Shown in pieces: positions 6,310-43,185 of a stretch of 52,597 nucleotides of DNA (position 1 is the first letter of the stretch; each line of letters starts with the position of its first letter). The translations under genes were made by a program, and so were the position numbers. Source of the DNA: an uncultured Trueperaceae bacterium (GTDB lineage Bacteria > Deinococcota > Deinococci > Deinococcales > Trueperaceae); the NCBI GenBank assembly GCA_963799485.1, contig CAWCXJ010000003.1, positions 1 to 52,597 on the forward strand. Direction: 5' to 3'. The notes under the pieces were generated by a model. That model was given only the letters and a program-made list of their open reading frames with translations, had not been told where the DNA came from and made no database searches.

Positions 6310-6801
6310 CTAGAGACTCGCCCGGAACGCGTCTATATTCCAACCCACAGGGTCAATTTTTCGAGGCGCGCTAATCTCTCGATGTGTCAATACCCGCTGT
6401 GCCGGGATTTCATAGCGTATCATCAGCCCTTGCACAAGCCAACGCGTTACCTCGAGCTGCTTTTCGCCGTAGACCTCATCATTTTTGTTGTGCGACTCGA
6501 GCCCTATCCCGATGCTGTAGGCGTTCAGGCCGTTCCAGAACGTCTCGCCCTCTGCCCACTCACTTTTACCGGCGTGCCACGCTACCGCGCTGTCTGGGAC
6601 GAGTTGAAAAACACGCCCATCTTTTGACACGTAGTAGGAGTAACTCACACCCACACCGGGCCGCTGCAAATACGCGACTTCATTGTCAGCGGTCGCGCCT
6701 TCGGGTAGGCCGGAGCCGTGCAGGATTATCAGTTGCGGTGGCGACTTTCGTTTTTCGCCGTAGTTTGAAGTGTGCGTGAGGGCGTAGCTGATTAACTCCA
6801 C
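6310..6801 (-). CDS. Endolysin, N-acetylmuramoyl-L-alanine amidase (Amidase_2)
   Basis: IILHGS, AWHAG, SIGIGLE, THREIS..RKIDP zinc-amidase motifs; probable GTG start at 6801. Confidence 0.9.
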   Translation of the reverse strand: MELISYALTHTSNYGEKRKSPPQLIILHGSGLPEGATADNEVAYLQRPGVGVSYSYYVSKDGRVFQLVPDSAVAWHAGKSEWAEGETFWNGLNAYSIGIGLESHNKNDEVYGEKQLEVTRWLVQGLMIRYEIPAQRVLTHREISAPRKIDPVGWNIDAFRASL

Positions 6802-8606
6802 GTCACCAATCCCTGTGTACGCGCTTCGCGGAGCGCCATGCCAACACACCAACCGATGTCATCGCCCCGGCTCGTGATATTTTCCGGCGTGCCCCATTCG
6901 CGCTGTGAAAACTTTACGTGTTCGCCCGTGGCAAACATTAGCGAGGGGCCGACCACATCGCCCCAGGTCTTTTTGTTTGCCTCAAAATACCTTTCGCCAT
7001 CGCTACCTTTTACGACAGGACGCGTGACGAGAACGCGGGTGTAACCCCCGTGCCGCGCCTTGAAGCGGAACTTATGAACCTGCCCCTCGGCATCTTTGCC
7101 ATCTACAAACCGTTCGGCGATGGGGCAGTGGGTGTTCCAGCCAAGCGTATCGTTCCAGTTTTCTTCGTCAATGCAGCGGTACTGAAGGGGTTGCGGTTGC
7201 ACCCCGGCGTACTGCGTGTTTGCCAACTTGCGCTGAAAATCGTCAGTGGCAAACATCCCCAGGCCATAAACGCCGACCTCCATTAAAAGGGTTTGTAACA
7301 GCTTGACATATACTAGAGGCTGGTATCCGTCCTCTTTCGATGCGCCCGGCGTCATGCCCAAAACGTTGTACGCCCAGGTATAGGATTTTAGCGTTTGACC
7401 GTTTACGTCCTGTTCGACGTCGGCAATCTCATTCTCGAGCATGATGGTCATACGCGCTACCCGGTCATCGCACTGCTTTACCCGGTCGGCTGCTTTGGCG
7501 GGCAGGATGCCTTTGATTTTGTCGCCCATCTCTTTGTGAAGCTTAGCTACTACCCGCTCGTAAATGGCGGGGTGCGCCTCGGCAATTCGGCCCTGCTGCC
7601 ACATATATTTCATGATGCACACGAACGGGTGAATCACCCGGTCGGTGTAGCCCATCAGGTCGCCTCTACCCAGCAGCGCTTGAAGCAGCTCGAGCCGCAA
7701 GACAACCTCGAGGCTGTCCTCGGCTATCGTCGCAAAGTCTTTAGCCCCCGAACGCAACATCTCGAAGAACCTGTAGGCCATCCCGCCGACCGTGCCCGTC
7801 AACAGGTTCAGTTCCTTGTCGTTGCGAATGGTAGCGAGACCGTTTGCCGTACTGTTGAGCGCCTCCATACCCTTCCAGTTTGAGCGCGGTCGCCACAGGC
7901 TGATAGTGACGCCCCAGATGGTCGCGGTATCCCAAATCAGGTTTTTACGCAGCTGAATGAACAGCCGCTTCGATTCAGTGATGTGCCAGTCTGTACCAAA
8001 AACCCGCCCTATCAGCTCCAACATGAACAGGTACGCGCCCACACTCCGGCCTACCTGCTGCATCGTCGCGGCGGTGACGGCGTTGTTGACCGCACCCAGG
8101 TTGCCCGCGTGCAACGTCTTCACGTCGGGCCACGCCTCTTTCGCGTTCGCGGCGACCATTTTCCCGACAGCCGTCAGCAGCAGAAGCAGCGCGCCGGAAA
8201 ACGCGGTGAGGCTGAACTTTTCGTCCGGCACGAGCGACGACCCCACCAGAGCCGGGACGGGCGGCTTCTCGGCCTCGGCTTTCAGCTCGAGTCCCCGCTC
8301 CCAGTAGGCCGTTTCGCGCTCGATGATGGCGACTTTTTCAGCCACGGTGTTGCGAAAACTCGCCAGCGCCTGTGTCTCGGCGTCTTTCGCCTGCGCCAGA
8401 GCGGCCTCGGCCTGTACCACGGTCGCGTAGGCAGCCTTGAGCGCGTCGAAGGCGACCTGTTCACTCACCGCTTCCGTACCGCCCTGTTCGGGCCACGGCA
8501 CACCGGCAGCCAGCGCCTTTTTACGAGCGGCCTGTTGCGGCGCGTTGGCAGCGTCGATCCGGGCTTTTCCGCCCGTCCATTCCTGATTTAGTTCGGCTTC
8601 GGTCAT
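6792..8606 (-). CDS. 604-aa protein, coiled-coil N-terminus plus predicted all-helical domain
   Basis: AGGAG RBS before ATG 8606; weak similarity to the C-terminal half of 14128-16959. Confidence 0.7.
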   Translation of the reverse strand: MTEAELNQEWTGGKARIDAANAPQQAARKKALAAGVPWPEQGGTEAVSEQVAFDALKAAYATVVQAEAALAQAKDAETQALASFRNTVAEKVAIIERETAYWERGLELKAEAEKPPVPALVGSSLVPDEKFSLTAFSGALLLLLTAVGKMVAANAKEAWPDVKTLHAGNLGAVNNAVTAATMQQVGRSVGAYLFMLELIGRVFGTDWHITESKRLFIQLRKNLIWDTATIWGVTISLWRPRSNWKGMEALNSTANGLATIRNDKELNLLTGTVGGMAYRFFEMLRSGAKDFATIAEDSLEVVLRLELLQALLGRGDLMGYTDRVIHPFVCIMKYMWQQGRIAEAHPAIYERVVAKLHKEMGDKIKGILPAKAADRVKQCDDRVARMTIMLENEIADVEQDVNGQTLKSYTWAYNVLGMTPGASKEDGYQPLVYVKLLQTLLMEVGVYGLGMFATDDFQRKLANTQYAGVQPQPLQYRCIDEENWNDTLGWNTHCPIAERFVDGKDAEGQVHKFRFKARHGGYTRVLVTRPVVKGSDGERYFEANKKTWGDVVGPSLMFATGEHVKFSQREWGTPENITSRGDDIGWCVGMALREARTQGLVTWS

Positions 8607-8615
8607 GTTACTCCT

Positions 8616-8640
8616 AAAAAAAATCCGCCCGGAGGCGGCG
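8616..8640 (-). terminator. Intrinsic terminator-like hairpin abutting RBS
   Basis: CCGCC-TCCG-GGCGG-A-T8 then AGGAG. Confidence 0.65.
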
Positions 8641-8658
8641 AGAGTCTTGAAAAAGGGC

Positions 8659-8697
8659 TTGACAACTCGTGATGATTCCTGTATACTCAATTCATCA
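8659..8697 (+). promoter_or_regulatory. Consensus sigma70 promoter with overlapping inverted repeat (operator candidate)
   Basis: TTGACA 8659-8664, 17 nt, TATACT 8682-8687; TGATGA 8670-8675 / TCATCA 8692-8697. Confidence 0.85.
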
Positions 8698-8740
8698 AAG
8701 GGCAGAGGCCGAAGGGCAGCCCGAACAGAGGGGGAATGAA

Positions 8741-9019
8741 ATGACTCAGCAGTACGAAACCTACAAAAACGAGGTTCGCAAAGAATTCCTCAAAATGGGC
8801 GAGCAGTACAGGACGGCCCATAAAGAACTCGAGGCGAGAAAGTGGGAACTCGTCGCCGAAGTCAACGCGAGAGAAGGTCGCACCGGTACCAGCAATGAAA
8901 CGCTGGCCAAGGTCATGGAAAGGCTTGAACCAGGCCAGCGCAAACTCGAGGCGCTGGAGCGGCGGATCGCCGCCTTTGAAAACAAGCACTACCACGAACT
9001 CGAGGTGCTCTCATGGTAG
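8741..9019 (+). CDS. Small helical protein, anti-defence candidate
   Basis: GAGGGG RBS; first gene after the strong promoter. Confidence 0.7.
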   Translation: MTQQYETYKNEVRKEFLKMGEQYRTAHKELEARKWELVAEVNAREGRTGTSNETLAKVMERLEPGQRKLEALERRIAAFENKHYHELEVLSW

Positions 9020-9294
9020 GGCTTACCACGAACGAAAATATAGAAGGAGAGTTCGAGCCGATTTCCCCTGAGCGGGTTTTCGAGGTTCTAGAATCCGGGA
9101 GTTACAGTAGCTTCACCTTTACTGAAAGCTGGGGGCACTACCGCATGACGCTCTCGCTGCTTGAAAACGAAAAGTTTTGCTTTTCAGGCCACCACAATTT
9201 TATTTGCGAGCGCCTCCATGCGCTCGAGTTTTTGAAAAAAGAAGGTATTGATTCGAGTATTTCTCACCTGTTCGACTGCTCCGACTATCCCTAG
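9013..9294 (+). CDS. Small acidic protein, anti-defence candidate
   Basis: GAGGTG RBS, overlaps previous gene, Glu/Ser/Phe-rich, lower GC. Confidence 0.65.
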   Translation: MVGLTTNENIEGEFEPISPERVFEVLESGSYSSFTFTESWGHYRMTLSLLENEKFCFSGHHNFICERLHALEFLKKEGIDSSISHLFDCSDYP

Positions 9295-9364
9295 TGCGCC
9301 CGCATCCGCCACAGCTAGACACCCTCAGCCCTGCCCCGGCTTTATAGGGGCAGAAAGAGAAACC

Positions 9365-9649
9365 ATGAAAGAAATCGTTGTTACTCGTCATCCCGCTTTA
9401 GTCGAGTTACTCCGCGAGCGCGGAGTAGTGCAGGGCACGCCCGAAGTCATCAGCCACGCGACACCGGAGGCCGTATCCGGCGCAAGGGTCATCGGGGTTT
9501 TGCCGCTGCACCTGGCGGCACTGGCAGCCGAAGTCGTTAGCGTCAGCGTGAACGTACCCGCTGAACTGCGCGGGTCTGAACTTAGCCTCGAGCAGCTCCG
9601 GGAGTACGCCGGAGAACCCGAGACTTACCGGGTGGAGCGGATTGATTGA
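9365..9649 (+). CDS. csx16: Csx16 (Cas_VVA1548)-like protein, putative cyclic-oligoadenylate ring nuclease
   Basis: Family motifs VTRHP, VIGVLPLHLAA, VPAELRGSELSLEQL; 94 aa. Confidence 0.8.
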   Translation: MKEIVVTRHPALVELLRERGVVQGTPEVISHATPEAVSGARVIGVLPLHLAALAAEVVSVSVNVPAELRGSELSLEQLREYAGEPETYRVERID

Positions 9650-9884
9650 GACTCGATGCTCGTAGTGGCAGCTACGGGCGACCGGACGGGTATGATGCGC
9701 CCCCGGCCTGAAAACACCGCTCACGAAACGGCGACCGCGAAAGCCAGTAGCCGAGCAGCACTGCACGGTGAGCGCGTACCAGTACCGCATCTGGGTAGTA
9801 GAAGGGGACAGCCGGCCTGTAGCGGCCCCCTCACCGAGAAACCATCTACAGGAATTGCTGAGACTGCCATTAGCGACCTTGTAC

Positions 9885-9917
9885 CCCGCACGTCCTCAGC
9901 GCGTGCGGGTTTTTTTG
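9885..9917 (+). terminator. Intrinsic terminator-like hairpin inside the accessory operon
   Basis: CCCGCACG-N9-CGTGCGGG-T7 then GGAGAG RBS. Confidence 0.7.
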
Positions 9918-9924
9918 GAGAGAA

Positions 9925-10293
9925 ATGAAAGAAAAACAGTTCAGACGCATTACCGGGTTCAGGATGCGGCGTGCGAACGTCGTCGGCTACCTGGTCAGGC
10001 CGACCTCTCTTCACAAGCTCTGGAAACTTTTGTGTTCCTACGACTATGCGCCCAGTAGCGCGGCCTCGAGGGTAGAGCGCAGACAGCTCGAGGATGAGCT
10101 GTACGAGTTCGGGCGCTGGAAAAAACGCGCCTATAGCGAGATAGAGGCGCACTCAGGGCGGAGCATCTGGAGCTTCACGCTAGCAGACTTTGCCGCTGCC
10201 GACATCTCGATAGAACGGCGGGCAGGAGATCTCGCGGCACGTATCCTCGACTACGCCCGCCGCGCAGACGTGCGCTCGACGAACCATGCCTAG
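9925..10293 (+). CDS. Hypothetical protein
   Basis: GGAGAG RBS; overlaps next gene. Confidence 0.6.
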   Translation: MKEKQFRRITGFRMRRANVVGYLVRPTSLHKLWKLLCSYDYAPSSAASRVERRQLEDELYEFGRWKKRAYSEIEAHSGRSIWSFTLADFAAADISIERRAGDLAARILDYARRADVRSTNHA

Positions 10294-10528
10294 CGGCGGC
10301 GCACGGCCCGGAACGGGCGGGGAACGTGTTGGAGCGGGGCGCAAACCGAAAGGCAAGCGCCCCCTTGTTCTGTTTCAAGTGAAAACGGATGAGCGTGTCA
10401 AGGCGGCATTCGAGTTGGCCTACAAAGAAGCCAACGACGAGCTTACCAAAGGCGAGTTTCTGGAACTCGTTTTGAGAAACTCGCCTGTTCTAAAAAAGGC
10501 TTTTATTACACTCTCCGAGCCTTATTAA
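10286..10528 (+). CDS. Small DNA-binding regulator (GGxRxGAGR plus ribbon-helix-helix-like), Aca-like position
   Basis: GGARPGTGGERVGAGRKPK then a beta-strand and two helices; last gene of operon. Confidence 0.65.
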   Translation: MPSGGARPGTGGERVGAGRKPKGKRPLVLFQVKTDERVKAAFELAYKEANDELTKGEFLELVLRNSPVLKKAFITLSEPY

Positions 10529-11162
10529 TAGATTCCTCTAACGACAACTTACGGCTTCTATAAAAATGCGCGAAACTTTTGTAGTGCAATCCAAGTTTCG
10601 CGCACAGCTCCGGCATCGCGTACGATTCTGATTCAAATTCAATACGGACACTACAGCGGCGGTTATTTTGTTGCTGAGCAATTGTCGCCCATCTGACGTT
10701 ACCCGGTTCATAATTTCCGTTGTTGTCAATTCGGTCAAGCGAATGTTTGGAACTAGGTCGTTTTCCTACATCAGCGAAAAAAGCCTCAAATGAATTGGCC
10801 CACCTTTCACAAACTTTAATACCCCTATCTGCATATCTTTCGCTAAAGCGGTAATAAGGGGTACACCGTTGCTTCATTGCTATCCAAGCATTGTGTTCCG
10901 GCGTTCGGTTCAAACCATGAGAAGTAGCCCTTTCTTTTCTTAACCGCTGGTTTTCGCAACCACAACTTATTGTGTGACCACAAGTAAAATTGTTACTGTC
11001 CAACTCGACTAAATTTCCACAAGCACAGATGCAAAGCCACCACATGCAGCGGCTGGCATGATTCGTCCGTTTGCCAAGTAGCGTTAAAACAGTAAGTTTG
11101 CCGAAAGTTTTGCCGGTCAAGTCTTTGACTTTACCTAAACTTTTAGGTGGGGTATATTCCAT
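10506..11162 (-). CDS. HNH-type homing endonuclease 1
   Basis: DLTGKTFGKLTV, WLCICACG, SCGC, RYADRGIKVCERW, SLDRIDNNGNYEPGNVRWAT; AT-rich; GGGAGG RBS. Confidence 0.9.
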   Translation of the reverse strand: MEYTPPKSLGKVKDLTGKTFGKLTVLTLLGKRTNHASRCMWWLCICACGNLVELDSNNFTCGHTISCGCENQRLRKERATSHGLNRTPEHNAWIAMKQRCTPYYRFSERYADRGIKVCERWANSFEAFFADVGKRPSSKHSLDRIDNNGNYEPGNVRWATIAQQQNNRRCSVRIEFESESYAMPELCAKLGLHYKSFAHFYRSRKLSLEESINKARRV

Positions 11163-11230
11163 TTGCAGACCTCCCAGTCTGTCGCGCCACGGCAGTGATT
11201 GCGTCACTGAGTCCGTGGCTTAATTATAAC
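11130..11230. promoter_or_regulatory. Convergent promoters around two hairpins (HNH1 leader)
   Basis: Minus TATAAT 11223-11228; plus TTTACC-17-TATATT; hairpins 11166-11181 and 11186-11219. Confidence 0.55.
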
Positions 11231-11332
11231 ATTTTTAGCTTGGGACGACTGGCATAGCGAGACCGGCGGCACACAGGGAGAGTTTCTGGCGCTGGTTCTC
11301 TCCGAGTCCGAGCGCGTCAAGGGTTGGGGCGT

Positions 11333-11551
11333 CTAGGGCGCGAGAACGACCGGGAACGGGTAGCGCGCAAACACCGTCGGCCATAGCCGCTGGGCCTCGG
11401 CTATCCCCGACTCAGCCGGAAACGCCCCCAAAAATACGAACGTCGAGTGGGAGCCCAGCCTTCTGTCCATACTCCTGTCGTGCCACGCCGCCACAGTCCA
11501 GCCCTCTATGACCTGTACCCGCGCCCTCCCCTCCACCTCGGCGTCGGGCAA
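11333..11551 (-). CDS. Small phage protein or fragment
   Basis: GWTVAAWHDRSMDRR.GSHSTF; no clear RBS; in frame with 11597-11722 past its stop. Confidence 0.45.
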   Translation of the reverse strand: MPDAEVEGRARVQVIEGWTVAAWHDRSMDRRLGSHSTFVFLGAFPAESGIAEAQRLWPTVFARYPFPVVLAP

Positions 11552-11596
11552 AAAGCCGCCGTGAAGCGGGCGCGGCGATTTGTCGGGACGGGGCGG

Positions 11597-11722
11597 TTAA
11601 ATTCTCAGCAGTCCTCGTGGCCTCACGGCGATACGCACGACCGGCGCGGCCTGGGGCAGCGTTACGGCGACGGTATCGGTGTTGGCGTCCTCCCAGAGTT
11701 TGTTCAGTTCTGTGTCTGTCAT
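11597..11722 (-). pseudogene. 41-aa orphan N-terminus homologous to the start of 6792-8606
   Basis: MTDTELNKLW... vs MTEAELNQEW...; 10/26 identical, ungapped; GGAGG RBS. Confidence 0.6.
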
Positions 11723-11782
11723 AGTGCCTCCAAAAAAACATCCCGCGCGAGCGGGCTAGAGGGCGTCTGTTTTCAGGGGGTG

Positions 11783-12130
11783 TCAATCAACCCCCGGCGC
11801 AATGCCTTTACCTGTCAGGTAGCTGTACGCGCCTTCAAAGCCCCCCGGCGTGTCGTTTGTCGGGTTCGTCAGAAAGCCGTGCCCGGTCATGAGGATGTCG
11901 AGTAATGCGTTGTAGGCTTTAAGCTCGCCGACAAGTTCACTGGTCGGGTCTAAAAACTGCTGACGCCACGACAGGGTTTTGACTTTTACGAGGTACGCTT
12001 CCGTCCGCGCAATCGTCTCTTTTTGCAGCGCGTCTACAAGCACGCGGGTGTTCACACTCTTAAATGCGGGGTTGATCGGCACAACGCCTCCTAAAATGTC
12101 CGTAATGAGCTGTGGGCTGAGTTTGGTCAT
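11783..12130 (-). CDS. Hypothetical tail-region protein
   Basis: GAGG RBS; co-oriented with tail genes. Confidence 0.6.
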   Translation of the reverse strand: MTKLSPQLITDILGGVVPINPAFKSVNTRVLVDALQKETIARTEAYLVKVKTLSWRQQFLDPTSELVGELKAYNALLDILMTGHGFLTNPTNDTPGGFEGAYSYLTGKGIAPGVD

Positions 12131-12137
12131 AGCGTCC

Positions 12138-12779
12138 TCATGCGGGCACATCGAAGGTGACCGTCAACGTAACCGTTTTAGTCGGGTCGCCCTGATACGA
12201 GAGCGTCCGGTGGTTGTTGTTGTCGCCCGCGTAGCCGTTGTTATCGGGAGGCAGCCAAAAGAGACACAGGTTGCTAATCGCCGCCGAGCCGAGCGCCCGC
12301 ACCTCTTGCGCCTGTGCGGTTACGTCCACATCATACTGACTGCCAAGCGTCCAGCTTCCCGGCGGCGTCCAGGTGTACAGCGCCGTCTTGACCCGCCCAC
12401 CGCCGACATTCGGCATGGTCAACTCCGACTTACTGCTAATCCGCGTGGGGTTTAACGCCCGTTCAAACGCCCAGCGTGACGGGTGCGGCGACGATGCCCC
12501 GCCGTCCGGGTAGATATGCGCCACAGCCGACACGATGGTGGCGTTACCCGGCAGGCTCCGCCCGTTTTCAGCTGTGAGGTAGATAAAGCTGCGGTAATTA
12601 AAGCGTGTGCTGCTGATTTGCCGCACGTAGAGATAGTTCGTTATCGCCAGACCGCCCGGACTGTCCGCGCCGTCGTAGGCATACTGCGTATCGAGCCGGT
12701 CGCCGGGGGCGAATTGCAAAGTGTCGCGCACCGTGCCGCCCGAGAGCGCCACCGCCGACGCTTTGATAGGGCGCGGCAT
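12138..12779 (-). CDS. Minor tail protein (DNRLRE/CBM-like beta fold)
   Basis: YRSFI...LPGNATIVSA...YDVDVTAQAQE pattern; TAATG coupling. Confidence 0.55.
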   Translation of the reverse strand: MPRPIKASAVALSGGTVRDTLQFAPGDRLDTQYAYDGADSPGGLAITNYLYVRQISSTRFNYRSFIYLTAENGRSLPGNATIVSAVAHIYPDGGASSPHPSRWAFERALNPTRISSKSELTMPNVGGGRVKTALYTWTPPGSWTLGSQYDVDVTAQAQEVRALGSAAISNLCLFWLPPDNNGYAGDNNNHRTLSYQGDPTKTVTLTVTFDVPA

Positions 12780-13645
12780 TAGCTGATGCGCTGCAAGGTC
12801 GCGCCGCCCCACGCACCAGCCGCTAGACCCGACACGGTTGCGCGTAAAATGCTGTTCGCTGCCATCGTCAGCGGGAACGACGCCGTGACCCACGACGCCC
12901 CGGCAGGGAGCGCGGCATACTGCCAGACGACATTAGAACCGGTCACACCGCCGTAGTAACTCGGCGCGGCGTACACCCCGGCAACGCCTGTAGGGTAGCG
13001 GTAGGCGCGGTTAGCGTCGAAGTCAAAGACCATCTCGCCGTAATTGGTAACGCCCTTCGCTTCCCACACGGCGACAGTGCCGCTCTGTCCTTGCGCAACC
13101 CCTGTCACGGTACAAAGCCACCACACCGCGTTGATCCCTGGGTTGAAGTTGAAGAAAATATCACCCTGTACACCTGAAACGGTCGGCTTGGCGGTCGCGT
13201 ACCCGCGAAACGTCCGGGGGGCCGGGAAAAACCCGAAGTTCTTGGTTGTGCCGTCGGCGTAGGTAAAAATGAGGTTCCCTACATTGTCGAGCGACACCGC
13301 GCTCAGTCCTGCCGTGTTAAGGCCGCTAACGGTGCTCGTCAGGGCGTTGAGGTCGTCACGCAACCCAGTCTGGTTCGCCTCGAGGCCCGAAAGCGACGCG
13401 TCGAAGTTGTCTACTTGCTCACGCGTCGCGTCGAACTGCCCGCGCAATACCCCGAGTTCGGCGGGATTCACAGTGTTGACCATCAAGGCAAAGTTTGCGT
13501 CAACATAGGCGAGGGCTTCATTTTGTGTACCGGGAGGAATTTTCGAGCCGCCCGAAAAAGGAATCTGCGGGATAAGCGTCACGGTTCCGGCGACGATGCG
13601 AATGATTACATCGTCGATCTGCGCCCTCAGCGCGAGACTAGGCAT
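12779..13645 (-). CDS. Tail fibre/minor tail protein
   Basis: Coiled coil, then LIFTYADGT and GDIFFN..WWLCTVTG fibre-like motifs. Confidence 0.65.
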   Translation of the reverse strand: MPSLALRAQIDDVIIRIVAGTVTLIPQIPFSGGSKIPPGTQNEALAYVDANFALMVNTVNPAELGVLRGQFDATREQVDNFDASLSGLEANQTGLRDDLNALTSTVSGLNTAGLSAVSLDNVGNLIFTYADGTTKNFGFFPAPRTFRGYATAKPTVSGVQGDIFFNFNPGINAVWWLCTVTGVAQGQSGTVAVWEAKGVTNYGEMVFDFDANRAYRYPTGVAGVYAAPSYYGGVTGSNVVWQYAALPAGASWVTASFPLTMAANSILRATVSGLAAGAWGGATLQRIS

Positions 13646-18958: not shown

Positions 18959-20595
18959 AAACGACCAATCGTGGTGCGTATTTCGCTTTGCCGCGTCGTG
19001 GTGTCGATGGCCAAACGGATACGGTCAGCTAGGGCCGCGTCACCCTCACGGCTAGGTGAGCCGAGGTCTACCACCGTACTAATGCCATTCGTGCGGTCAA
19101 ACGCATAGCGGTATTCAGCGGCGTCGGTCATGCCAGTCTCGAGTTTGACTTTAGGCAGCGGCGGGGCGTAGTAGCCGACCCGATTACGGTCTTGGGCGCG
19201 GCGCAAAATGAGCTGCACGGGTTCTTGTGCAGGGGTGCGGAATTCGGCGATAGCGGCAGCGTCTAGGAGAGAGGTATTAAGGGTCAAAATCTTAAAGTCT
19301 TTGATAATGAAATTTGTCGGTGCATCGGTGGAGTTGACAAAGAATCTTACTAAATTCATGGTATAAGTACGCCCATTAGCCGCTAAAAATGGCTTCACAG
19401 GAGGAAATTTTAGCTCTATTGGAGTAAAACTGCCCTCAGTGTAATTTGGTTGGAAAACCGCTTTTTCATCCCCAGTGTAACGTTCCTGGCCCTGATCATC
19501 TAAAAAACCGAACCTGGCAGCTATGAAAGGTCGTGCCATCCCATAACTGAGACGATAATTAAAACTTAGTCCGCAAATATTTTTAGATGAGGCCAAAGGA
19601 AAAATCTGGAATCCCGCAGAATTTTGGTTTTGGGTATAAGATCCGTTTGAAACGGTAAATCCTCCGTAAATATCTACTCTGTCAATCGCTTCAGGGACAA
19701 GCAAAGAGACTCCAACATATGTGCGCGCTATTACTTTGCTGAACAGGTTGTGCGCTCCCTTATCAGGAATCGAAAGGTACGTCAGTGTTGACCATTGCAG
19801 GTTTTGGGTCAACGAATAATCAGTTTGGCCTGACTCAATTCGTAACCCGTCACTCGGCTCATTCCCGATAACCCACAGCACCGCCGTCACCGTATCGTCT
19901 GCTTTAATCGGCAGGTCGGTATAGTCCTCGGGGTAATACGGCACGTCAAGTGTGCCCGTCAGCTCTTTGAAAAAGACAAAGCCGCGCCCGTCAACGCCGT
20001 AGCTAATCGTGCGGCCCGCGTCAGCGACGCTTTGCCCTAACAGGTTCAGCGCTTCGCCTAACTGGATACCGGGCTGTTCAAAGCCGCCCTCGAGCGTGGT
20101 CGCCGTCTGAGGGAAGTCGATTTCATTAAAGTTCAGCGCCGGGTGACGCAAGCGCCTTACAAGGTCTTGCGCGATTAAGGCCGGGTCTTGTGCGGGATAG
20201 CTTACGGCGTCGGTCACAGTACCGTCTAGTAGGTATTCGGCGTCAGCTACATAATCCCGGACGCCGCCCGGTAGCTTTTTCGCTGCCCAGCCCTGCGTAA
20301 TCGCGCCGTAAAACACATCTTTCCAGCCGTCGCCGTCGTTTAGCCGAAACACGATGATTTCACCGCCGGTACACGCCACGAGATGAGGGAACCCGGTAAA
20401 AGTGAGCGTCTTGACCGCGCCACCGGGCGCAACCGCACACGCTACCTCACGGTCGAGGCCGTTGTACTTGTACGCCGAAAACTGGTTGAGGACTTGCGTC
20501 CCGTTCTGCGAGAGGATTACCAGGTGAAAGTCCTGTATGTCCTGTGAGGGCGGCTGTGGCAACACCGCCCGGTTGAGTGCAGCAAGTTGGGTCAT
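18955..20595 (-). CDS. Baseplate hub/tail tip protein
   Basis: Follows the tape measure (ATGA overlap); YGVDGRGFVFF hub-like motif. Confidence 0.65.
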   Translation of the reverse strand: MTQLAALNRAVLPQPPSQDIQDFHLVILSQNGTQVLNQFSAYKYNGLDREVACAVAPGGAVKTLTFTGFPHLVACTGGEIIVFRLNDGDGWKDVFYGAITQGWAAKKLPGGVRDYVADAEYLLDGTVTDAVSYPAQDPALIAQDLVRRLRHPALNFNEIDFPQTATTLEGGFEQPGIQLGEALNLLGQSVADAGRTISYGVDGRGFVFFKELTGTLDVPYYPEDYTDLPIKADDTVTAVLWVIGNEPSDGLRIESGQTDYSLTQNLQWSTLTYLSIPDKGAHNLFSKVIARTYVGVSLLVPEAIDRVDIYGGFTVSNGSYTQNQNSAGFQIFPLASSKNICGLSFNYRLSYGMARPFIAARFGFLDDQGQERYTGDEKAVFQPNYTEGSFTPIELKFPPVKPFLAANGRTYTMNLVRFFVNSTDAPTNFIIKDFKILTLNTSLLDAAAIAEFRTPAQEPVQLILRRAQDRNRVGYYAPPLPKVKLETGMTDAAEYRYAFDRTNGISTVVDLGSPSREGDAALADRIRLAIDTTTRQSEIRTTIGRL

Positions 20596-23500
20596 ATTTT
20601 AGTTAGTTTCTGAGGATTGCGAGACTCATAACTATTTGTCCCCTTTAGTAGTTTGTCGGCAGCGGCGTCTATCTTGTTTGCGGCCCGCCAGTTCACATCG
20701 GCAGCACGGGCGATAAGTTCAGCGCCGTGCCCGAAGGTGTCGAAGTAAGCTCCCATCTTGGTAAACCAGTCCGGGGTAGCGGAGCCGAGACTACGCGCCT
20801 TGAGCTTGATGCTCTGCCCTAAGTTTTCAAAGGTCGGTTCGTTTGCGGGTGTGCTAAAGCCGAGCCGGTCAGCCGCCCCGCGTAAGGGCGCAAGGATTTG
20901 CTCGAGCTTGCCGAAGATGCCGGGTAGTTTGTCGGCGATCTGCTGCACGCCTTGTGCCGCGCCGTTTACGTCGCCTTTGGTGATATCTGCCGTGAGGTCG
21001 GTTAAGAGTGGCCCCAGCGACTGCGCTAAGACCTGTTTGCTGAGCTGGTCGAAAAGCCCGTCAAAGGTCGTGTCGAAAAGTCCCTCGAGGGTCTGCTGAA
21101 AGTCGAGCGCCTCACCCGACTTGATCGCCGTCTTGAGCCCTTGGGAGATACCGCCCGAAACACTCTGCTCGAGGGCGAGTCCGGTCGTTTTGGCAAAGTC
21201 TAAAATCTCTTGCTGATATTCTGTCAGCCCTTGCTTGAGCTTGACTTTTGAGCCCAAGAGCTGCCCGAGTATCCCGGTGAGGTTGCCGTCACTCCGCCCG
21301 ATAATGGCGTACCCGGTCAGGGCGCGGCCTGAAATGATATCGAAGGTGTCGCGTTCAAACTCGAGTAACGCTTTTTTGTTTGCGGCGTAAGCTTCTTTTT
21401 CCTCTTTCGGCGCTTTGGATTTGCGCTCACCGTACTTTTTGATGAAAGCGCGTTGTTTGCGGTCGGCCTCGGTGAGCGCCTTTAAGGTGCGCTCAGTGTC
21501 GGTCTGTACGCCCTGCTCAAAGCTGTTTGAGAGGGCACTAAAGGCTTTTTGCTGCGTTTTGATAGCGCTGTTGATGCTACCGACGACGCCCGTCTTGTAG
21601 CCCTCTACGCCACGCTGGACGCTCTTTAAGAGGCCACCCAAAGGGCCAACGGAGCGGACGTTCCCGCTCCGGTACGAAGTGTCGGGTTCAACCTGGGCAA
21701 ACGACGTGCCGTACCCGAAGGGCCGCGCTTCGATGTCTTGCATCAGGCCGTAAGTGTCGAAGTTGCCGAACTCCGAAGACATGCCGCCTAGCGCACGTTC
21801 GTCTATGGTGGCGTTTAGGGGTGCAAAGAATCCCGCCGCACCGGGTCTGCTACCGCCTCCCCCGCCGCTACCTGAATTTTTGAAACTGGGCAGGCCGCTG
21901 CCAAGTTTGCCGACGGTCGAGGCCGCGACAAGCTTGTTCATCGCGGTACGAATATCGTTAGTGACGCTACCAATTTTATAGACGGTCTGACCGCCCTGGG
22001 TGATAAGCATGGTGTCTTGCTTGTTGAAAAACGACGCGAGGGCGTTGGATAAATCGGTGCCGCTACGGTCCAACGTAGCAATAAGGCCGTCAGGTTTACC
22101 GTGAACGCCGTTTCTTTGCTCCTGCACTAAAAGCTCGTAAGTCTGCCGAATAACGGAGCGCAGCACTCCTTGCTGCGCTTCAAGCTGTGTTTTTTGCGCT
22201 TCAAACACGCCTTTTTGGGCGTTAGTAAGCGCAATGGCTTGAGCTTCCAAATCGCCCACTAACGAACCGCTATCCCCTGATGACGCGCCTCTAATGAGGT
22301 CAAAGGCAGCTCGTATTTTGTCAGCGGTCGTTTGTGCGCCGCTTTGGGCCGCGTCACCGGGCGCAACGATTGCCGCACCTACGGCGGGCGTGACAGCCTT
22401 CTCGCTTGCTATAGCCTGAGTCGTCAGTGCACCCGACCCCTCTTGCAGGGCCGACGCTTCGCTGTTGTAAAGGTCGAGAATCGACCTGCGAATCTGCGCT
22501 GTTTTTTCCGGGCCAAACAGATCTATAAGCTGCTGGTTTAACCCTGCAATAACCTGACGCGGGGCATCCCCGGCAGTTATAGCAGTTGTAGCGAGCTGCT
22601 GATTGCCCGCTTGCAACGCGACGGCCTGCTCGCTGTAAAGGTTGAGGATAGCCGCGCGGATTTCTGCGGACTTTTCCGGCCCGAAGAAATCAATAAGCTG
22701 CTGATTTAGAGCGTCAACACCCTCGCGGGTCGCTGTCGCCCCGTTAGCCGCTGCTGTGCCTAGCGTCTGGTCGGACGCTTCGAGTTCAGCAAGCAACGTC
22801 GTGGTACTGAGGCCCAGAGCTTCAGCGGCCTGAGCAGCGCCTTCAGGTAGCACGCCGAAGACTTGGTAGTAAGCAAACAAAGCATCTTTGATACCAGCTA
22901 GCTGCTCACCCGTAAGGGAGCCTAGAATCTCATCGTTGCCCGAAAGGATGCCCTCGTAAAGCTCTTGCTGACTAATCCCCATTGCCTTAGCAATGTCGCC
23001 CGTATCTTCAAGGATTTTTGCGATTTCGTAGCCCAGCGCCTGCCTGTAGTTACCCAGCTCGGTTGAGAGCCCCGTTTTTTCGTCAATCAAAAACTGACGG
23101 CTGCGCTGAAGCGCCTCACGCTGATTCTGGGTCAGTTCGGGGTTGAGTAACGCGTTGTCAATTTGCGCGAGTTCGCCGTTGATTTCGTTATTACGCTTGG
23201 CAATGTCAGCCACAGCATCTTCGTAGTCTTGGTAGGCATCTAACAGCTCAACTTTAAGCTGGGCAAAGGCAACAGCACCTTGCCCCTTTTTGCCTTTGTA
23301 TTCGTCGGAGTCCTTAGCGTAATCAATCTTGGCGTCTAGCAGGGTGTCTTGCGATTTGGCAAAACTCTTTTCGTTGGCCTCGTTGATGTCGTTAAGAAAG
23401 CCGAAGGTCTCGCCCAGCCTCCGGTTGACCTCTTCAATACCTTCGATATAATCGTCAAAGGCTTCTTCGTTAAAGGTTTCTTTACCCTGATAGTCAATTT

Positions 23501-26492
23501 CAACAAACTTGTCGGCGATTTCGGTGCCGTAGCGCTGCACGGCGTCGGCATACTGTTTCGTCTCTTTGCCGTAATACGAAAACTGGTTGACCGCCGCGCC
23601 GATTGATTTAGTGACAAAGCCGACGAAATCAAGCCGGATAAGCGAGCCGAAGGCGTCGGCGCTGTCTGACAAGAACGTAACGGTAGACTCGCTTGCGCCG
23701 GTTGCTGAATCGCTGTAGTCGCTGAGCCCGCCGGAGAGCGCGTCAAAACCGGCAAGTAGCAGTTCGTTGGCGGTTGCCGCCGAATCTACCTGCTGTTCGT
23801 ATTTAAGCCATTCACCACGCGCCTCTTGTACGGCGTCGCTTTGCGGGTCAAGCCCCTGGTCGATAAGCTCTTGGAGTGCGCTTCTAGCGACGTCCGCACG
23901 CACTTCAGCTTGGGAAAGGCCGGTATTGAATAGCTCGTTTTCAGTTTCGGCCTTGCGGTAGGCGTCAGGGAGGTCTTGCTCAAGTATGGCGGCGTAGTCG
24001 AGAATGGGGCGGACGTCCGGTATCGGTAACTCTATTTCGTCCGGCACTTCAGCAAAGCCTTTGACCACAACGTCTACGGCGTCGGCAACTTCAGCAAAAC
24101 CTTCTACAGTTATATCTACCGGCTCGGCAACATCGGCAAACGCTTTGGCGGTTAGGTCTACACTGTCTGCTACTTTCGCAAACGGCTTGACCATAACGTC
24201 TACGCTGTCTGCCACCTGAGCAAAGGGCTTAACGGCGGCGTCTACCGAATCGGCCACGATTGCGTAAGCGCCGCCTAATAATTCAACGCCGTCTACGGCA
24301 TTTTCGGCGGCTTCTCCTGCTTCGGCGGCAGCGTTACCGGCTGAATTTAGCCCATCACCTGCGTCATTACCACTACCCGAAACACCATCCAGCGCGTCTC
24401 CAGTTTGTGTAATTACAGGAGTTGTTTTACCTAAATTGCTTTTTAGCGTGTCAAGGCGAGTGTTTAAGGCGTCGGTAGATTCTTGCACCGCCGCCATGCC
24501 ACCGCCTGCCACACTCAAATAAGCATCGTTATATTCGGTAAAAATGTCCTTGAGGTTGTCTAAGTTAAAAGGGTCGGCAGCCGCGGATTCTTCAGACAAC
24601 CGCCGCGCCTCTTCAAAGTTACCCCTAAGCAACTCTTGAAAAGACTGAAACCCGAGTCGAATAGACTCACCTGCGCCTAAAAAGTTTTCTTTGAACGCTT
24701 TTAATGAGGCGTCCAGGCCCGCGAACACCCCTGCAAGTTGACGCCCAAACCCGCCCGCTTCAATCGCAAATGTACCGATCTGCCGGACAAGCTCAATCGT
24801 CGTACCTGCTAGTGTAAGCGCCTGTTCGTTCGTCCCGGTGAATGCGTTTTGCTCGAGTAGTACGTCGAAAAGTTCTACCGCCGCTTCTTTAGCGCTGACA
24901 AAAGAGGGCGTCAGAAATGTGCCGATGCCGATACGCAAGTCGTAGATTCTGCGGTTTACGTCGTTGACCGTCCCGGCGTTAGAGTCAAGCAGGGTCGAGA
25001 GTGAAGCAACTTCTTGCCCCGTAGCTCCGAGGATAATGTTAAGCGCGGCTTGGGCCTTAGCAGATTTGACCGCGCTCTCGCCTAAACCTTCAGCGCCTTT
25101 ACCCGCTTCGCCCATCGCCGCGCCGATATTTTCAGCGATACCGATTGAGTTCAGCAGTTGCGAGTTTTCGGTGATGATCGCGCCCGAAACCGCGTTGACA
25201 CCTGCCGCCGCCGACTTACCGAAAGCTAAGGCCGACGCGCCGCCTGCGACTAGCACTTTTTCAATCTGTTCAGCCGTCAGCCCGTAACGCGTGAGCTGAA
25301 TCGCCGCGTCTGTTACCTGGTCGGTTGAAAGCCCTAGCGTATCGGCGACACGTGAAAATGCTGCATTTGCAGTATCGGTGTCTTGCCCGGTCTGCGCTAG
25401 GGTCTGCTGAAGGATAAGCGTAGAGACTCGAGCGTTATCCGCTTCAGCGACAAACCCGTTTAAGACCTTGCCGAGCCCAAGAAAGCCCGCCGCGCCCAGT
25501 AGCGGAAGGAAAGACGCCGCCATACCCTTAGCGGCGACACCCAGCCCAGCAAGACGGGCGTCTGCTGCTGTCGCCGCCTTACCGAGTGCGCCGATTCCCG
25601 GAACTGCCCGAAAGCTTGCGCCACCTGCTGCGGTAATACCAAATGCGCTGGCTTCACCTGCTGCTGCTGTACCACCCAAGCTAAGGTTCAAAGCGTTCGT
25701 GCTACCGATTAACACCTGCTGGCTTAACCCGAGCTTTGAAGTATTGCCTATCGCGGTAGCAATACCGCGTTGCGCCGTCCCGATTGAACGGGTGAGCGTG
25801 CCGTACTCTTTAGACGAGCGTGAAAACTCGCCTCGAGCGAGGCGCATCTGCTGCTCAATCTCTCGGGTATCAGCGATGAAGTCTTCGCGGCCTTTGTCGC
25901 CCGACTCATAAGCCACCCGGAGATTTGAAACCGCGTCACGGTAACGCCTTACGTCGTCGGCGTTCATCGCCGCTTGTGCCCGCTTCTGGGCTGTCTCGAG
26001 CTTGATAAGCTGATCGCCTGCGGTGTCTAGGGCTTTGGCGTATTCGCCGTACTCTTTAGAAGAGGTGTCAAGATTTTTAAGTGAGCTGCCGAGTTCGGTT
26101 GTAATCGCACGTAAACGCGTAACGGTTTCATCTTGGGTTTTCAACCCTGCTTTTTGCTCGGCGAACAGCCCTTTGATTTCCGCAGAGTAGGCTCGAGCTG
26201 CCTTTTGACCGTCGGTTAGAGGTTTGTTACCCGAGGCCGCGCCCTTGCCTACCGCGTCGAGACCGGCAGCTAGATTTTTCGCATCGGTGGCGAGTTGCTT
26301 TTGAACGACGCTCAGCTCTTTAAGCGCAGCAGTCTCGTCTTTGAGTGACTTGAGGTAAGCCGGTGCGCCCTTTGGGTTTAGCCGATCCTCAGCGGCCTTA
26401 CGGACGGCCTCGAGCTGTTTGGTCAGGTCGGAAATAGTTTTTTCATCAATTTGGACATCAAAGAAAAGTGCGCCGACTGAATCGCTCGCCAT
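20592..26492 (-). CDS. Tail tape measure protein
   Basis: ~1,970 aa, Ala/Gly-rich helical, starts MASDSVGALFFDV; follows the chaperone pair. Confidence 0.92.
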   Translation of the reverse strand: MASDSVGALFFDVQIDEKTISDLTKQLEAVRKAAEDRLNPKGAPAYLKSLKDETAALKELSVVQKQLATDAKNLAAGLDAVGKGAASGNKPLTDGQKAARAYSAEIKGLFAEQKAGLKTQDETVTRLRAITTELGSSLKNLDTSSKEYGEYAKALDTAGDQLIKLETAQKRAQAAMNADDVRRYRDAVSNLRVAYESGDKGREDFIADTREIEQQMRLARGEFSRSSKEYGTLTRSIGTAQRGIATAIGNTSKLGLSQQVLIGSTNALNLSLGGTAAAGEASAFGITAAGGASFRAVPGIGALGKAATAADARLAGLGVAAKGMAASFLPLLGAAGFLGLGKVLNGFVAEADNARVSTLILQQTLAQTGQDTDTANAAFSRVADTLGLSTDQVTDAAIQLTRYGLTAEQIEKVLVAGGASALAFGKSAAAGVNAVSGAIITENSQLLNSIGIAENIGAAMGEAGKGAEGLGESAVKSAKAQAALNIILGATGQEVASLSTLLDSNAGTVNDVNRRIYDLRIGIGTFLTPSFVSAKEAAVELFDVLLEQNAFTGTNEQALTLAGTTIELVRQIGTFAIEAGGFGRQLAGVFAGLDASLKAFKENFLGAGESIRLGFQSFQELLRGNFEEARRLSEESAAADPFNLDNLKDIFTEYNDAYLSVAGGGMAAVQESTDALNTRLDTLKSNLGKTTPVITQTGDALDGVSGSGNDAGDGLNSAGNAAAEAGEAAENAVDGVELLGGAYAIVADSVDAAVKPFAQVADSVDVMVKPFAKVADSVDLTAKAFADVAEPVDITVEGFAEVADAVDVVVKGFAEVPDEIELPIPDVRPILDYAAILEQDLPDAYRKAETENELFNTGLSQAEVRADVARSALQELIDQGLDPQSDAVQEARGEWLKYEQQVDSAATANELLLAGFDALSGGLSDYSDSATGASESTVTFLSDSADAFGSLIRLDFVGFVTKSIGAAVNQFSYYGKETKQYADAVQRYGTEIADKFVEIDYQGKETFNEEAFDDYIEGIEEVNRRLGETFGFLNDINEANEKSFAKSQDTLLDAKIDYAKDSDEYKGKKGQGAVAFAQLKVELLDAYQDYEDAVADIAKRNNEINGELAQIDNALLNPELTQNQREALQRSRQFLIDEKTGLSTELGNYRQALGYEIAKILEDTGDIAKAMGISQQELYEGILSGNDEILGSLTGEQLAGIKDALFAYYQVFGVLPEGAAQAAEALGLSTTTLLAELEASDQTLGTAAANGATATREGVDALNQQLIDFFGPEKSAEIRAAILNLYSEQAVALQAGNQQLATTAITAGDAPRQVIAGLNQQLIDLFGPEKTAQIRRSILDLYNSEASALQEGSGALTTQAIASEKAVTPAVGAAIVAPGDAAQSGAQTTADKIRAAFDLIRGASSGDSGSLVGDLEAQAIALTNAQKGVFEAQKTQLEAQQGVLRSVIRQTYELLVQEQRNGVHGKPDGLIATLDRSGTDLSNALASFFNKQDTMLITQGGQTVYKIGSVTNDIRTAMNKLVAASTVGKLGSGLPSFKNSGSGGGGGSRPGAAGFFAPLNATIDERALGGMSSEFGNFDTYGLMQDIEARPFGYGTSFAQVEPDTSYRSGNVRSVGPLGGLLKSVQRGVEGYKTGVVGSINSAIKTQQKAFSALSNSFEQGVQTDTERTLKALTEADRKQRAFIKKYGERKSKAPKEEKEAYAANKKALLEFERDTFDIISGRALTGYAIIGRSDGNLTGILGQLLGSKVKLKQGLTEYQQEILDFAKTTGLALEQSVSGGISQGLKTAIKSGEALDFQQTLEGLFDTTFDGLFDQLSKQVLAQSLGPLLTDLTADITKGDVNGAAQGVQQIADKLPGIFGKLEQILAPLRGAADRLGFSTPANEPTFENLGQSIKLKARSLGSATPDWFTKMGAYFDTFGHGAELIARAADVNWRAANKIDAAADKLLKGTNSYESRNPQKLTKI

Positions 26493-26557
26493 AAAGCACC
26501 GCCTCTCGTGTGGCAAAAAAAGAACCACCCGTAAAGGCGGTGTGCTAGATTTCTGTT

Positions 26558-43165: not shown

Positions 43166-43185
43166 CGTCCAGCACGCAAAAACTC

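Follow-up and report, generated by a model that had tools for sequence, protein, structure and literature searches.

The window, by which we mean the whole stretch of 52,597 nucleotides analysed here, is phage DNA: genes for terminase, capsid, tape measure, endolysin and repressor are present, and the repressor, an S24 peptidase encoded at 50930-51772, marks the phage as temperate. The late genes lie on the minus strand and five small ORFs (ORF1 to ORF5) run counter to them on the plus strand, with tail genes (11783-12893 and beyond) on one side and a 604-aa gene and the endolysin (6310-8606) on the other. A second prophage in the same genome, on contig C2, carries a sister cassette (the window itself is from contig C3). 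The features of the region are the following.

8625-8641, minus strand: terminator-like hairpin followed by T8 (5 pairs, 4 of them G-C; tail ATTTTTTTTA)
8659-8687, plus strand: sigma-70-type promoter, TTGACA-17-TATACT, matching 11 of 12 consensus positions
8670-8675 and 8692-8697: inverted repeat TGATGA-N16-TCATCA bracketing the −10, a candidate operator
8700-8722, plus strand: two-tier 5'-UTR hairpin, also conserved in the C2 cassette
8741-9019, plus strand: ORF1, 92 aa, coiled-coil-like
9013-9294, plus strand: ORF2, 93 aa, G+C 0.48, orphan
9365-9649, plus strand: ORF3, 94 aa, Csx16 (Cas_VVA1548) family
9650-9884, plus strand: untranslated stretch of about 236 nt after csx16, filled by an ORF of non-coding composition
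9885-9916, plus strand: intrinsic terminator (stem 9885-9909, 9 bp with 7 G-C pairs, then T7)
9925-10293, plus strand: ORF4, 122 aa, orphan
10286-10528, plus strand: ORF5, 80 aa, chimeric
10421-11237: inserted block of 817 bp, G+C 0.37-0.50 against 0.63 up to 0.73 in the flanking bins
10506-11207, minus strand: HNH endonuclease gene, inside the inserted block
11238-11336, plus strand: displaced native 3' end of ORF5, 32 codons and a stop

The left boundary of the cassette is the terminator-like hairpin at 8625-8641, just upstream of the 604-aa late gene. The near-perfect sigma-70 promoter described in an earlier, sequence-only reading of this DNA was borne out, as 8659-8687 ranks first among the 4 promoter-like sites of 7500-12500 (shuffled sequences gave 1.6 ± 1.4) and agrees with the consensus at 11 of 12 positions; a scan of the plus strand from 8687 to 11130 detected no promoter-like site. 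The same reading had proposed the inverted repeat that straddles the −10 as the binding site of an autorepressor. The repeat is indeed there, but a perfect 6-bp inverted repeat with a spacer of 4-24 occurs in 14.2% of random 51-nt segments of the contig and in 12.0% of shuffles of the promoter segment, and the homologous promoter of the C2 cassette (TTGACA-17-TATTAT) contains no inverted repeat of 5 or 6 bp. With a chance frequency of 12-14% and no conservation in C2, the repeat at 8670-8697 is weak sequence evidence for an operator. The 5'-UTR of the C2 cassette is also homologous, and the hairpin at 8700-8722 forms 7 of 7 pairs in both prophages, 2 of the 4 outer pairs being changed on both sides.

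All five ORFs show codon-position G+C of the coding type (GC3 well above GC2). Where five or six small genes had been suggested, five remain on the plus strand: the possible sixth, a 90-aa ORF at 9656-9928, has GC1, GC2 and GC3 of 0.65, 0.64 and 0.54 as against about 0.6, 0.44 and 0.7 in real genes of the window, and for this reason is regarded as non-coding. The untranslated stretch gives no sign of a structured RNA, as its folding z-score is −0.69 on the plus strand and −0.27 on the minus strand; Rfam returned no match at E ≤ 1 over 8400-11300, and searches of 88 Csx16 loci and of the genome by blastn and tblastx found no relative of the stretch. The intrinsic terminator that follows (9885-9916) sits between csx16 and ORF4-ORF5, and as judged from this strong signal, which splits the one from the other, the cassette is not one clean operon. 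When the cassette DNA was compared with a phage collection the HNH gene alone was matched, weakly. In one wastewater dataset, labelled RNA-Seq although it may be DNA, two contigs of 151 nt are identical to 8882-9031 and 9116-9266 and the other matches are loose, which is no firm sign of transcription.

The earlier proposal of an anti-defence operon survives by way of ORF3, a gene that had not been singled out, although not in the form of one clean operon, given the terminator stem at 9885-9909. ORF3 matches Pfam PF09652 with 69.3 bits (cut-off 25; E 3.3e-19) over profile positions 2-90 of 91, and PADLOC Csx16 at 4e-18. Of 504 candidates, 287 are homologous at E ≤ 1e-3; PF09652 was found in all of the best 120 of these 287, and the closest among the matches listed are 63-68% identical to ORF3. 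In an alignment of 32 sequences ORF3 keeps 16 of 16 invariant columns (T7, R8, H9, L12, L16, E18, G39, V42, G44, L46, P47, L50, R69, G70, E72 and Y88) and 13 of 14 nearly invariant ones, the exception being V58, where at least 90% of the sequences have T. The best structural match of the ORF3 model is AFV3-109 (2j6c), a structure of the AcrIII-1 family, and Foldseek against the PDB gave nothing at E ≤ 1e-3. The Csx16 fold is reportedly a derived Rossmann/CARF-like one that resembles Crn2/AcrIII-1. By its sequence ORF3 is a member of the Csx16 family and is predicted to be a ring nuclease acting on cyclic tetra-adenylate (cA4), from which we infer both enzymatic activity and an effect on immunity; it is the sole gene of the cassette to which an anti-defence function, a predicted one, can be assigned. 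In the published work on this family (PMC12409355), Csx16 degraded cA4 in vitro but not cA3 or cA6, and the Csx16 tested remained strictly cA4-specific even at tenfold higher enzyme. The paper also presents cellular Csx16 as an off-switch for type III signalling, notes Csx16 in 2 of 28,114 phage genomes, and discusses the related protein Csx15, which showed no ring-nuclease activity, as a possible sponge.

A tblastn search of ORF3 against 50,697 GenBank phage records gave no match, and 104 stretches in IMG/VR encode a relative. No cas family other than Csx16 was present among 150 immediate neighbours in 77 viral loci. In seven further loci another cas family was likewise absent (0/7) and phage or integrase families were present in six, and the single plasmid match sits among SSB genes and small genes. 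The Csx16 clade to which ORF3 belongs is mobile. Only one HTH protein was seen among the 150 neighbours in the viral loci, so a recognisable regulator is rarely adjacent. Descriptions of Csx16 have so far dealt mainly with a cellular off-switch, and the recurrence of this clade on viral contigs, where the scanned neighbours include no other cas family, widens the picture of the family.

The host itself carries CRISPR genes. Contig C13 starts with cas6, cas8b, cas7, cas5, cas3, cas4, cmr1, cmr2, cmr3 and cmr4, a type I-B plus III-B locus that is cut by the contig end and partly unassembled. Its Cas10 lacks an HD domain and keeps the sequence YAGGDDV, which includes the GGDD cyclase motif. Because cmr5/6 and cas1 are missing from the assembly, and no CRISPR array was found in it by 18-mer and 12-mer scans and at the contig ends, an active type III system in this host is putative. 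Searches of the host assembly with four CARF/SAVED-effector families (PF09455, PF09651, PF09002 and PF18145) detected no cA4-responsive effector; two of these searches were run without a positive control. The phage copy is the only Csx16 in the genome, and none was found in the genomes of 100 relatives. Possession of type III-B genes with a cyclase-competent Cas10 makes this host fit an anti-type III reading of the cassette.

We consider it fairly probable (about 0.6) that the region serves anti-defence as an accessory cassette, of the moron type, in a temperate siphovirus-like phage; it lies between the modules for tail and lysis and runs counter to both, starting from a host-type promoter close to the consensus. 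The Cmr complex of the host (type III-B) would recognise phage RNA, its Cas10 would then make cA4, and a phage Csx16 dimer would cleave the cA4 to linear products before cA4-dependent effectors switch on. Transcription from the promoter at 8659-8687 would mostly stop at the 9885-9916 terminator, and some read-through, which we infer, would leave ORF4 and ORF5 weakly expressed; ORF5 probably acts as an Aca-like regulator whose feedback is on the promoter or the conserved 5'-UTR.

Csx16 might instead serve the lysogen, with the prophage enzyme holding down cA4 so that transcripts which leak from the prophage and match host spacers would not set off type III autoimmunity, a matter of tolerance and not of anti-CRISPR action at the time of infection. 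The S24-peptidase repressor of a temperate phage and a host-type constitutive promoter placed inside the late region, as in lysogenic-conversion morons, are both in keeping with such a role, as is the off-switch function of cellular Csx16 in PMC12409355; but enzyme and substrate are the same as those proposed for infection and the two roles are not exclusive. As a replacement for an infection-time role we think it unlikely. The idea that ORF3 binds or degrades another nucleotide signal, or acts as a mere cA4 sponge, and counters a defence other than type III (for example a CBASS-like one) draws on the four effector families that were searched in the host with no hit, on the departure from T58, and on Csx15, the relative that in PMC12409355 showed no ring-nuclease activity and is considered there as a possible sponge. 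This is very unlikely, however, in view of the strict cA4 specificity of the tested Csx16 at tenfold higher enzyme (same source), the 16 of 16 invariant residues kept by ORF3 and the GGDD motif of a host Cas10 that is, by this motif, cyclase-competent.

For the remaining cargo there is little to add to the anti-defence reading. Three genes (8741-9019, 9013-9294 and 9925-10293) had been put forward as candidate new inhibitors, a suggestion that found no support for any function: ORF1, ORF2 and ORF4 are orphans with no notable match in Pfam, PHROG or PADLOC and with Atlas scores of at most 0.80. ORF2 has no homologue in 5.8 billion protein clusters, and an AF2 model of ORF2 alone is poor (pLDDT 55.6). 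ORF4 matches no toxin family in Pfam or PADLOC; its stop overlaps the start of ORF5 by 8 nt, suggesting that the translation of the two is coupled.

ORF5, the last gene of the cassette, begins at its N-terminus with GGARPGTGGERVGAGRKPKGKRP. Residues 1-45 are native and comprise a basic arm at the N-terminus together with a strand and helix 1, and the C-terminal 35 residues come from the HNH block, the end at 10528 being a substitute for the native 3' end at 11238-11336. The displaced native end agrees with the C-terminus of P0122, the third homologue beside ORF5 and its C2 counterpart, in 30 of 32 residues, and the HNH insertion has preserved an open, homologous ORF5 C-terminus. When modelled as a homodimer ORF5 scored 0.48, the best of 3 controls scoring 0.00. 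Of 30 proteins whose solved structure is a pair of one chain, 20 attain the mark of 0.48, as does 1 of 23 that were solved as single chains. At least 94% of contacts agree between the dimer runs (pLDDT at least 67), and in the model residues 28-34 of the two copies are paired antiparallel as an N-terminal ribbon. From this modelling we predict that ORF5 is an RHH-like homodimer. The sequence-only reading had called the last gene product a small RHH-like DNA binder; in Pfam ORF5 gives no RHH family match. Among PDB sequences it has no match either (the best is a truncated haemoglobin, E 0.2). Relatives of ORF5 number only two in the searches made, and an alignment search of IMG/VR and the genome contigs produced none. 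Matches in IMG/VR that might have passed for relatives were rejected, having in common with ORF5 only the N-terminal GGARPGxGR arm; those in the loci L010 and L013 are small-terminase-like and lie beside HNH or large-terminase genes. Because terminase-like proteins carry it, the arm is taken as a generic DNA-binding motif and not as an Aca signature.

The sister cassette on C2 consists of three small genes unrelated to the cargo in the window and, last, an uninterrupted ORF5 homologue. The gene before this homologue encodes 82 aa and is unrelated to ORF4, and no terminator was found in the C2 cassette, including the position before the ORF5 homologue. ORF5 or its homologue closes a counter-oriented, same-strand cassette in 2 of 2 related prophages, both from one genome, and the C3 and C2 cassettes have promoter and last gene in common and differ in their cargo (n = 2, one genome). 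The expectation that homologues of the last gene would be linked to variable small genes is matched in these two prophages. Beside other Csx16 genes a relative of ORF5 was found in 0 of 88 loci. In view of the dimer model, of its place as last gene behind a homologous promoter and 5'-UTR in both prophages and of the published Aca14 case, ORF5 is plausibly a new Aca-like regulator that would bind DNA; the chance-level, unconserved repeat, the terminator before ORF4, the lack of an RHH match in Pfam and the 0 of 88 loci speak against it.

It is highly improbable, we think, that ORF4 and ORF5 are a separate module (for instance a toxin and its RHH antitoxin, or some other pair that includes a regulator) with a weak promoter of its own behind the terminator and an ORF5 unrelated to the csx16 promoter. 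RHH proteins are common antitoxins, there is a strong terminator before ORF4, and the 8-nt overlap is what a coupled pair might have; but in C2 the ORF5 homologue follows a different gene, of 82 aa, with no terminator between them, the plus strand has no promoter-like site from 8687 to 11130, and ORF4 matches no toxin family. That the cassette is a set of neutral, hitch-hiking genes without present function can hardly be upheld, for although 3 of its 5 genes are orphans, its G+C is a mosaic (ORF2 0.48, HNH block 0.37-0.50) and a homing endonuclease has struck the last gene, its ORFs are all intact and of coding-type codon-position composition, a second phage has a conserved counterpart of its promoter (consensus at 11 of 12 positions), its Csx16 keeps every invariant residue and the endonuclease insertion has left an open, homologous ORF5 C-terminus.

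A bolder extension of the anti-defence reading, which we hold to be doubtful but worth stating, is that ORF5 and its two relatives form a new, sequence-orphan RHH-type Aca family. It would mark a hypervariable slot for anti-defence genes, placed between the modules for tail and lysis, and would act on the conserved promoter and on the hairpin of the 5'-UTR. Six orphans among the cargo (ORF1, ORF2, ORF4 and three on C2) would then inhibit host type I-B/III-B or other defences, and ORF5 would be conserved enough among related phages to serve as a homing site for the HNH endonuclease, which would bring a replacement C-terminus with it.

Viral ring nucleases are the main known viral route to disarming type III CRISPR signalling, and to our knowledge AcrIII-1 is the only one of them to have been studied in depth. 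A temperate phage with Csx16 in a lysogen with type III-B genes is a natural pair in which to try a phage Csx16 as an anti-CRISPR. The slot common to the two prophages, with its different cargo, is a compact place in which to seek new anti-defence genes and a possible regulator family.

The closest precedent for this arrangement is the csx20-aca14 operon of Pasteurella multocida (PMC13551039), in which the RHH protein Aca14 acts as repressor of csx20 by way of an inverted repeat lying over the −10. In both cases a mobile element carries a ring-nuclease gene that derives from CRISPR systems, and an inverted repeat overlaps the promoter −10; ORF5, a predicted RHH-type protein, may also correspond to Aca14 as a small regulator encoded in the same operon. 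The two differ in that the nuclease here is Csx16 and not Csx20, and in that ORF5 has 80 aa with a long basic N-terminal arm, whereas the purified Aca14 construct has 66 residues. In addition, the cassette in the window holds a terminator and three orphan genes, and its repeat is short, at chance level and not conserved. Close membership of ORF5 in the Aca14 family is unlikely, since no more than 2 relatives of ORF5 turned up in the searches. With the classical acr-aca loci (HTH proteins Aca1-Aca13) the cassette has in common a strong promoter followed by a number of small genes that vary, the last one being conserved and encoding a small DNA-binding protein (predicted here), as well as cargo that varies between related phages at one fixed slot. 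Unlike them it has a last gene product that is not HTH, cargo of which 0 genes match a known Acr, an internal terminator and a position in the late and not the early region. Compared with Csx16 as defined by PF09652 / TIGR02620, ORF3 is phage-encoded, lies away from cas genes and has V in place of the near-constant T58, but is full-length at 94 aa, has the predicted alternating strand-helix fold and keeps the invariant residues. With AcrIII-1 (DUF1874), finally, ORF3 would share its job, that of a small, virus-encoded dimeric enzyme predicted to destroy cA4.

The window comprises all 52,597 bp of contig C3, a temperate siphovirus-like phage within a 3.66-Mb genome, and nearly all of its genes lie on the − strand. 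The cassette runs counter to these, bounded by the last tail genes (11783-12893) and by a 604-aa gene plus the endolysin. A wastewater metagenome run (labelled RNA-Seq, possibly DNA) contains two 151-nt contigs identical to 8882-9031 (ORF1) and 9116-9266 (ORF2), and the phage, or one very closely related to it, therefore exists beyond the assembly. The features referred to are as follows (window coordinates except for the last).

43604-45831, − strand, replication genes
34109-35446, − strand, large terminase
31190-32149, − strand, major capsid
20592-26528, − strand, tape-measure-sized gene, 1978 aa
6310-6852, − strand, Amidase_2 endolysin
50930-51772, + strand, S24-peptidase repressor
8659-8687, + strand, cassette promoter TTGACA-17-TATACT, 11/12 consensus positions
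9885-9909, + strand, strong intrinsic terminator (nine pairs, seven G-C), then T7
8741-9019, 9013-9294, 9365-9649, 9925-10293 and 10286-10528, + strand, ORF1 to ORF5, all with coding-type codon-position composition
L018 (C2:40000-58000) 8572-9546, sister cassette on contig C2: three small orphan genes (73, 62 and 82 aa), then an ORF5 homologue

The sequence-only reading had proposed an anti-defence operon with ORF1, ORF2 and ORF4 as candidate inhibitors. For these three genes there is no evidence of any function; the proposal survives through ORF3 (9365-9649), which had been passed over and which is, on its sequence, a Csx16-family protein. The Pfam family Cas_VVA1548 matches the whole of ORF3 (69.3 bits, cut-off 25, E 3.3e-19), and the PADLOC models for Csx16 (4e-18) and for a CARF-HEPN-Csx16 fusion (1.7e-10) match as well. 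Among 5.8 billion protein clusters, 287 homologues reached E <= 1e-3; PF09652 is present in 120/120 of those listed, and the closest among the matches listed are 63-68% identical. In a 32-sequence alignment ORF3 retains each of the 16 invariant positions (T7-R8-H9, E18, R69-G70 and E72 among them) and 13 of 14 nearly invariant ones, with V58 where the family has T. The AlphaFold model is confident (pLDDT 94.7), and Foldseek of this model against the PDB returned nothing at E <= 1e-3. In a published study, purified Csx16 degrades cA4 completely and leaves cA3 and cA6 untouched (PMC12409355).

The Csx16 clade of ORF3 resides largely on mobile elements, because its viral, species-genome and plasmid contexts are all of that type. 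Relatives at 40-67% identity are encoded by 104 IMG/VR stretches. Two flanking ORFs per locus were scanned in 77 of 80 viral loci. Of these 150 ORFs, 13 have some Pfam family and one is an HTH protein; a second Csx16 aside, there is no cas family among them. An additional scan of 88 ORFs in six species-genome loci and one IMG/VR locus (the 2-kb locus L022 being excluded) found no other cas family in any of the seven and phage-type or integrase families in six. The single plasmid match, a gene labelled Csx16 on Deinococcus proteolyticus pDEIPR02, has no cas genes within 9 kb. It lies (L114, NC_015162.1 10115-28387) among many small hypothetical genes, two SSB genes and a RES-family gene, surroundings which we take to resemble an anti-defence-rich plasmid leading region. 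In one MAG and one viral contig (L019 4991-5980 and L070 3337-4302) a stand-alone Csx16 gene directly adjoins a gene whose 321-329-aa product ends in a Csx16 domain; the N-terminal 190 residues of this product have no Pfam match. Phage-borne Csx16 is itself already in print, as a count of 2 of 28,114 phage genomes, with 36 for AcrIII-1 (PMC12409355); the evidence for mainly mobile-element carriage of the clade is new. No study testing viral Csx16 as an anti-CRISPR was found in a literature judged mostly by titles.

The host cas locus (L007, C13:1-12703) is a hybrid of type I-B and type III-B that runs off the start of contig C13, where cas6, cas8b, cas7, cas5, cas3, cas4, cmr1, cmr2 (Cas10), cmr3 and cmr4 are encoded, the contig end cutting cmr4. 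An IS256-family transposase fragment adjoins cas6. The GGDD cyclase motif is present in the host Cas10 and an HD domain is absent, and therefore any immunity by the type III-B system should depend on nucleotide signalling. Moreover, cmr6, cas1 and a CRISPR array are absent from the whole host assembly, and four CARF-/SAVED-effector family searches, two of them without a positive control, found no host effector. In a complete same-genus genome the orthologous cmr1-6 operon stands alone amid housekeeping genes; effectors in that genome, too, are encoded elsewhere. As the GGDD Cas10 is present but the locus is incomplete and no effectors were found, an active host target for the phage Csx16 is plausible only. 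The phage copy is the sole Csx16 in the host genome, and a search of 100 related genomes revealed none. A temperate phage with Csx16 and a host with type III-B genes form a concrete pair that is new.

The sigma70-type promoter proposed for the cassette is indeed present. Of the "five or six" small genes proposed, five have coding composition; the sixth (9656-9928) was rejected as non-coding, its GC1,2,3 being 0.65, 0.64, 0.54 vs about 0.6, 0.44, 0.7 in real genes here, so that 9650-9924 is untranslated. The terminator closes this untranslated stretch and leaves ORF4 and ORF5 downstream, and no second + strand promoter-like site was found from the cassette promoter up to 11130. Within the 70 nt that separate ORF2 from csx16 lies a 7-bp G+C-rich hairpin at 9325-9352 (CTGCCCC, 9 nt, GGGGCAG; no T-run). 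The TGATGA/TCATCA inverted repeat has its 6-bp arms at 8670-8675 and 8692-8697 but is no commoner than expected by chance, a comparable repeat occurring in 14.2% of random 51-nt contig windows and in 12.0% of promoter-segment shuffles.

In a large protein database ORF5 has a single homologue, the 76-aa P0122, which is 68% identical and encoded on a 56.7-kb contig; one paralogue (about 48-50% identical) lies elsewhere in the genome, on C2. Judged from the alignment, a mobile endonuclease gene has split ORF5. The native ORF5 C-terminus is now encoded at 11238-11336 (30/32 residues identical to P0122), separated from residue 45 by an inserted block of 817 bp (10421-11237) with a G+C of 0.37-0.50 vs 0.63 up to 0.73 in flanking bins. 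The block holds an HNH endonuclease gene on the opposite strand (phrog_374, 1.9e-60). It also provides ORF5 with a new C-terminus, homologous to the displaced one though diverged from it, and the reading frame thus continues to 80 aa. Uninterrupted, the gene would encode 76 aa, as many as P0122 has. An HNH insertion bringing its own replacement C-terminus to this putative regulator gene is new. Further HNH genes lie at 42436-43236 and 47633-48109 and at C2:6714-7283; the first and last of these, the two compared, encode proteins 36-39% identical to the HNH inside ORF5, and both phages seem heavily colonised by homing-type endonucleases.

An ORF5 homodimer model passed its controls, scoring 0.48 (best of three controls 0.00). 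Of proteins solved as one-chain pairs 20 of 30 attained that mark, as did 1 of 23 solved as single chains; contact agreement between runs was at least 94% and pLDDT at least 67. In the model the two subunits pair antiparallel at residues 28-34, as the predicted ribbon of a ribbon-helix-helix (RHH) fold. ORF5 has no RHH family match in Pfam and no PDB sequence match. The GGARPGxGR stretch at its N-terminus is shared with small-terminase-like proteins and is thus a basic arm of a generic kind.

A related prophage on contig C2 has an equivalent slot, in which tail genes are followed by a counter-oriented cassette (promoter TTGACA-17-TATTAT, 11/12 consensus), an uninterrupted ORF5 homologue as last gene, a terminator-like hairpin, and then homologues of the 604-aa protein and an endolysin. 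The 604-aa protein (6792-8606) corresponds to two genes there, a 145-aa coiled-coil and a 521-aa protein (L018 9614-11609), and none of the three has a family match. The cargo genes of the two cassettes are unrelated, in line with the expectation that ORF5 homologues accompany variable small genes. Of the other Csx16 loci, 0/88 hold an ORF5 relative. ORF5 and its homologues may form a new orphan family of RHH regulators, located at a variable slot that the two prophages have in common. The promoters and 5'-UTRs share 74% column identity, and each UTR folds independently into the same two-tier hairpin (8700-8722; L018 9483-9505, − strand). All seven pairs are kept in both sequences (ungapped 23-nt alignment), while two of the four outer pairs are substituted at both positions, as no pair is in six slid controls; these compensatory changes, in two sequences compared, are no more than suggestive.

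We put the probability that the cassette is anti-type-III at about 60%. Host polymerase would read the near-consensus promoter both when the phage enters and during lysogeny. Csx16 dimers would then cleave cA4 from Cmr-Cas10 and so keep cA4-dependent effectors off. With the terminator in place, csx16 and the two preceding genes would be abundant and ORF4-ORF5 scarce, and ORF5 may regulate the cassette in return, through the promoter or the UTR hairpin. Autoregulation of the cassette by ORF5 is a tentative proposal, against which count the chance-level, unconserved repeat, the terminator before ORF4-ORF5 and the lack of ORF5 relatives beside other Csx16 genes.

The outcome proposed for the phage Csx16 is the same as that of AcrIII-1, and the hairpin recalls RNA motifs reported in acr-aca 5'-UTRs. 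An RHH Aca over a ring-nuclease operon is already in print: the csx20-aca14 operon is repressed by an RHH protein that acts at an inverted repeat overlapping the −10 (PMC13551039). This precedent, the closest published one to the cassette, makes a regulatory role for ORF5 credible.
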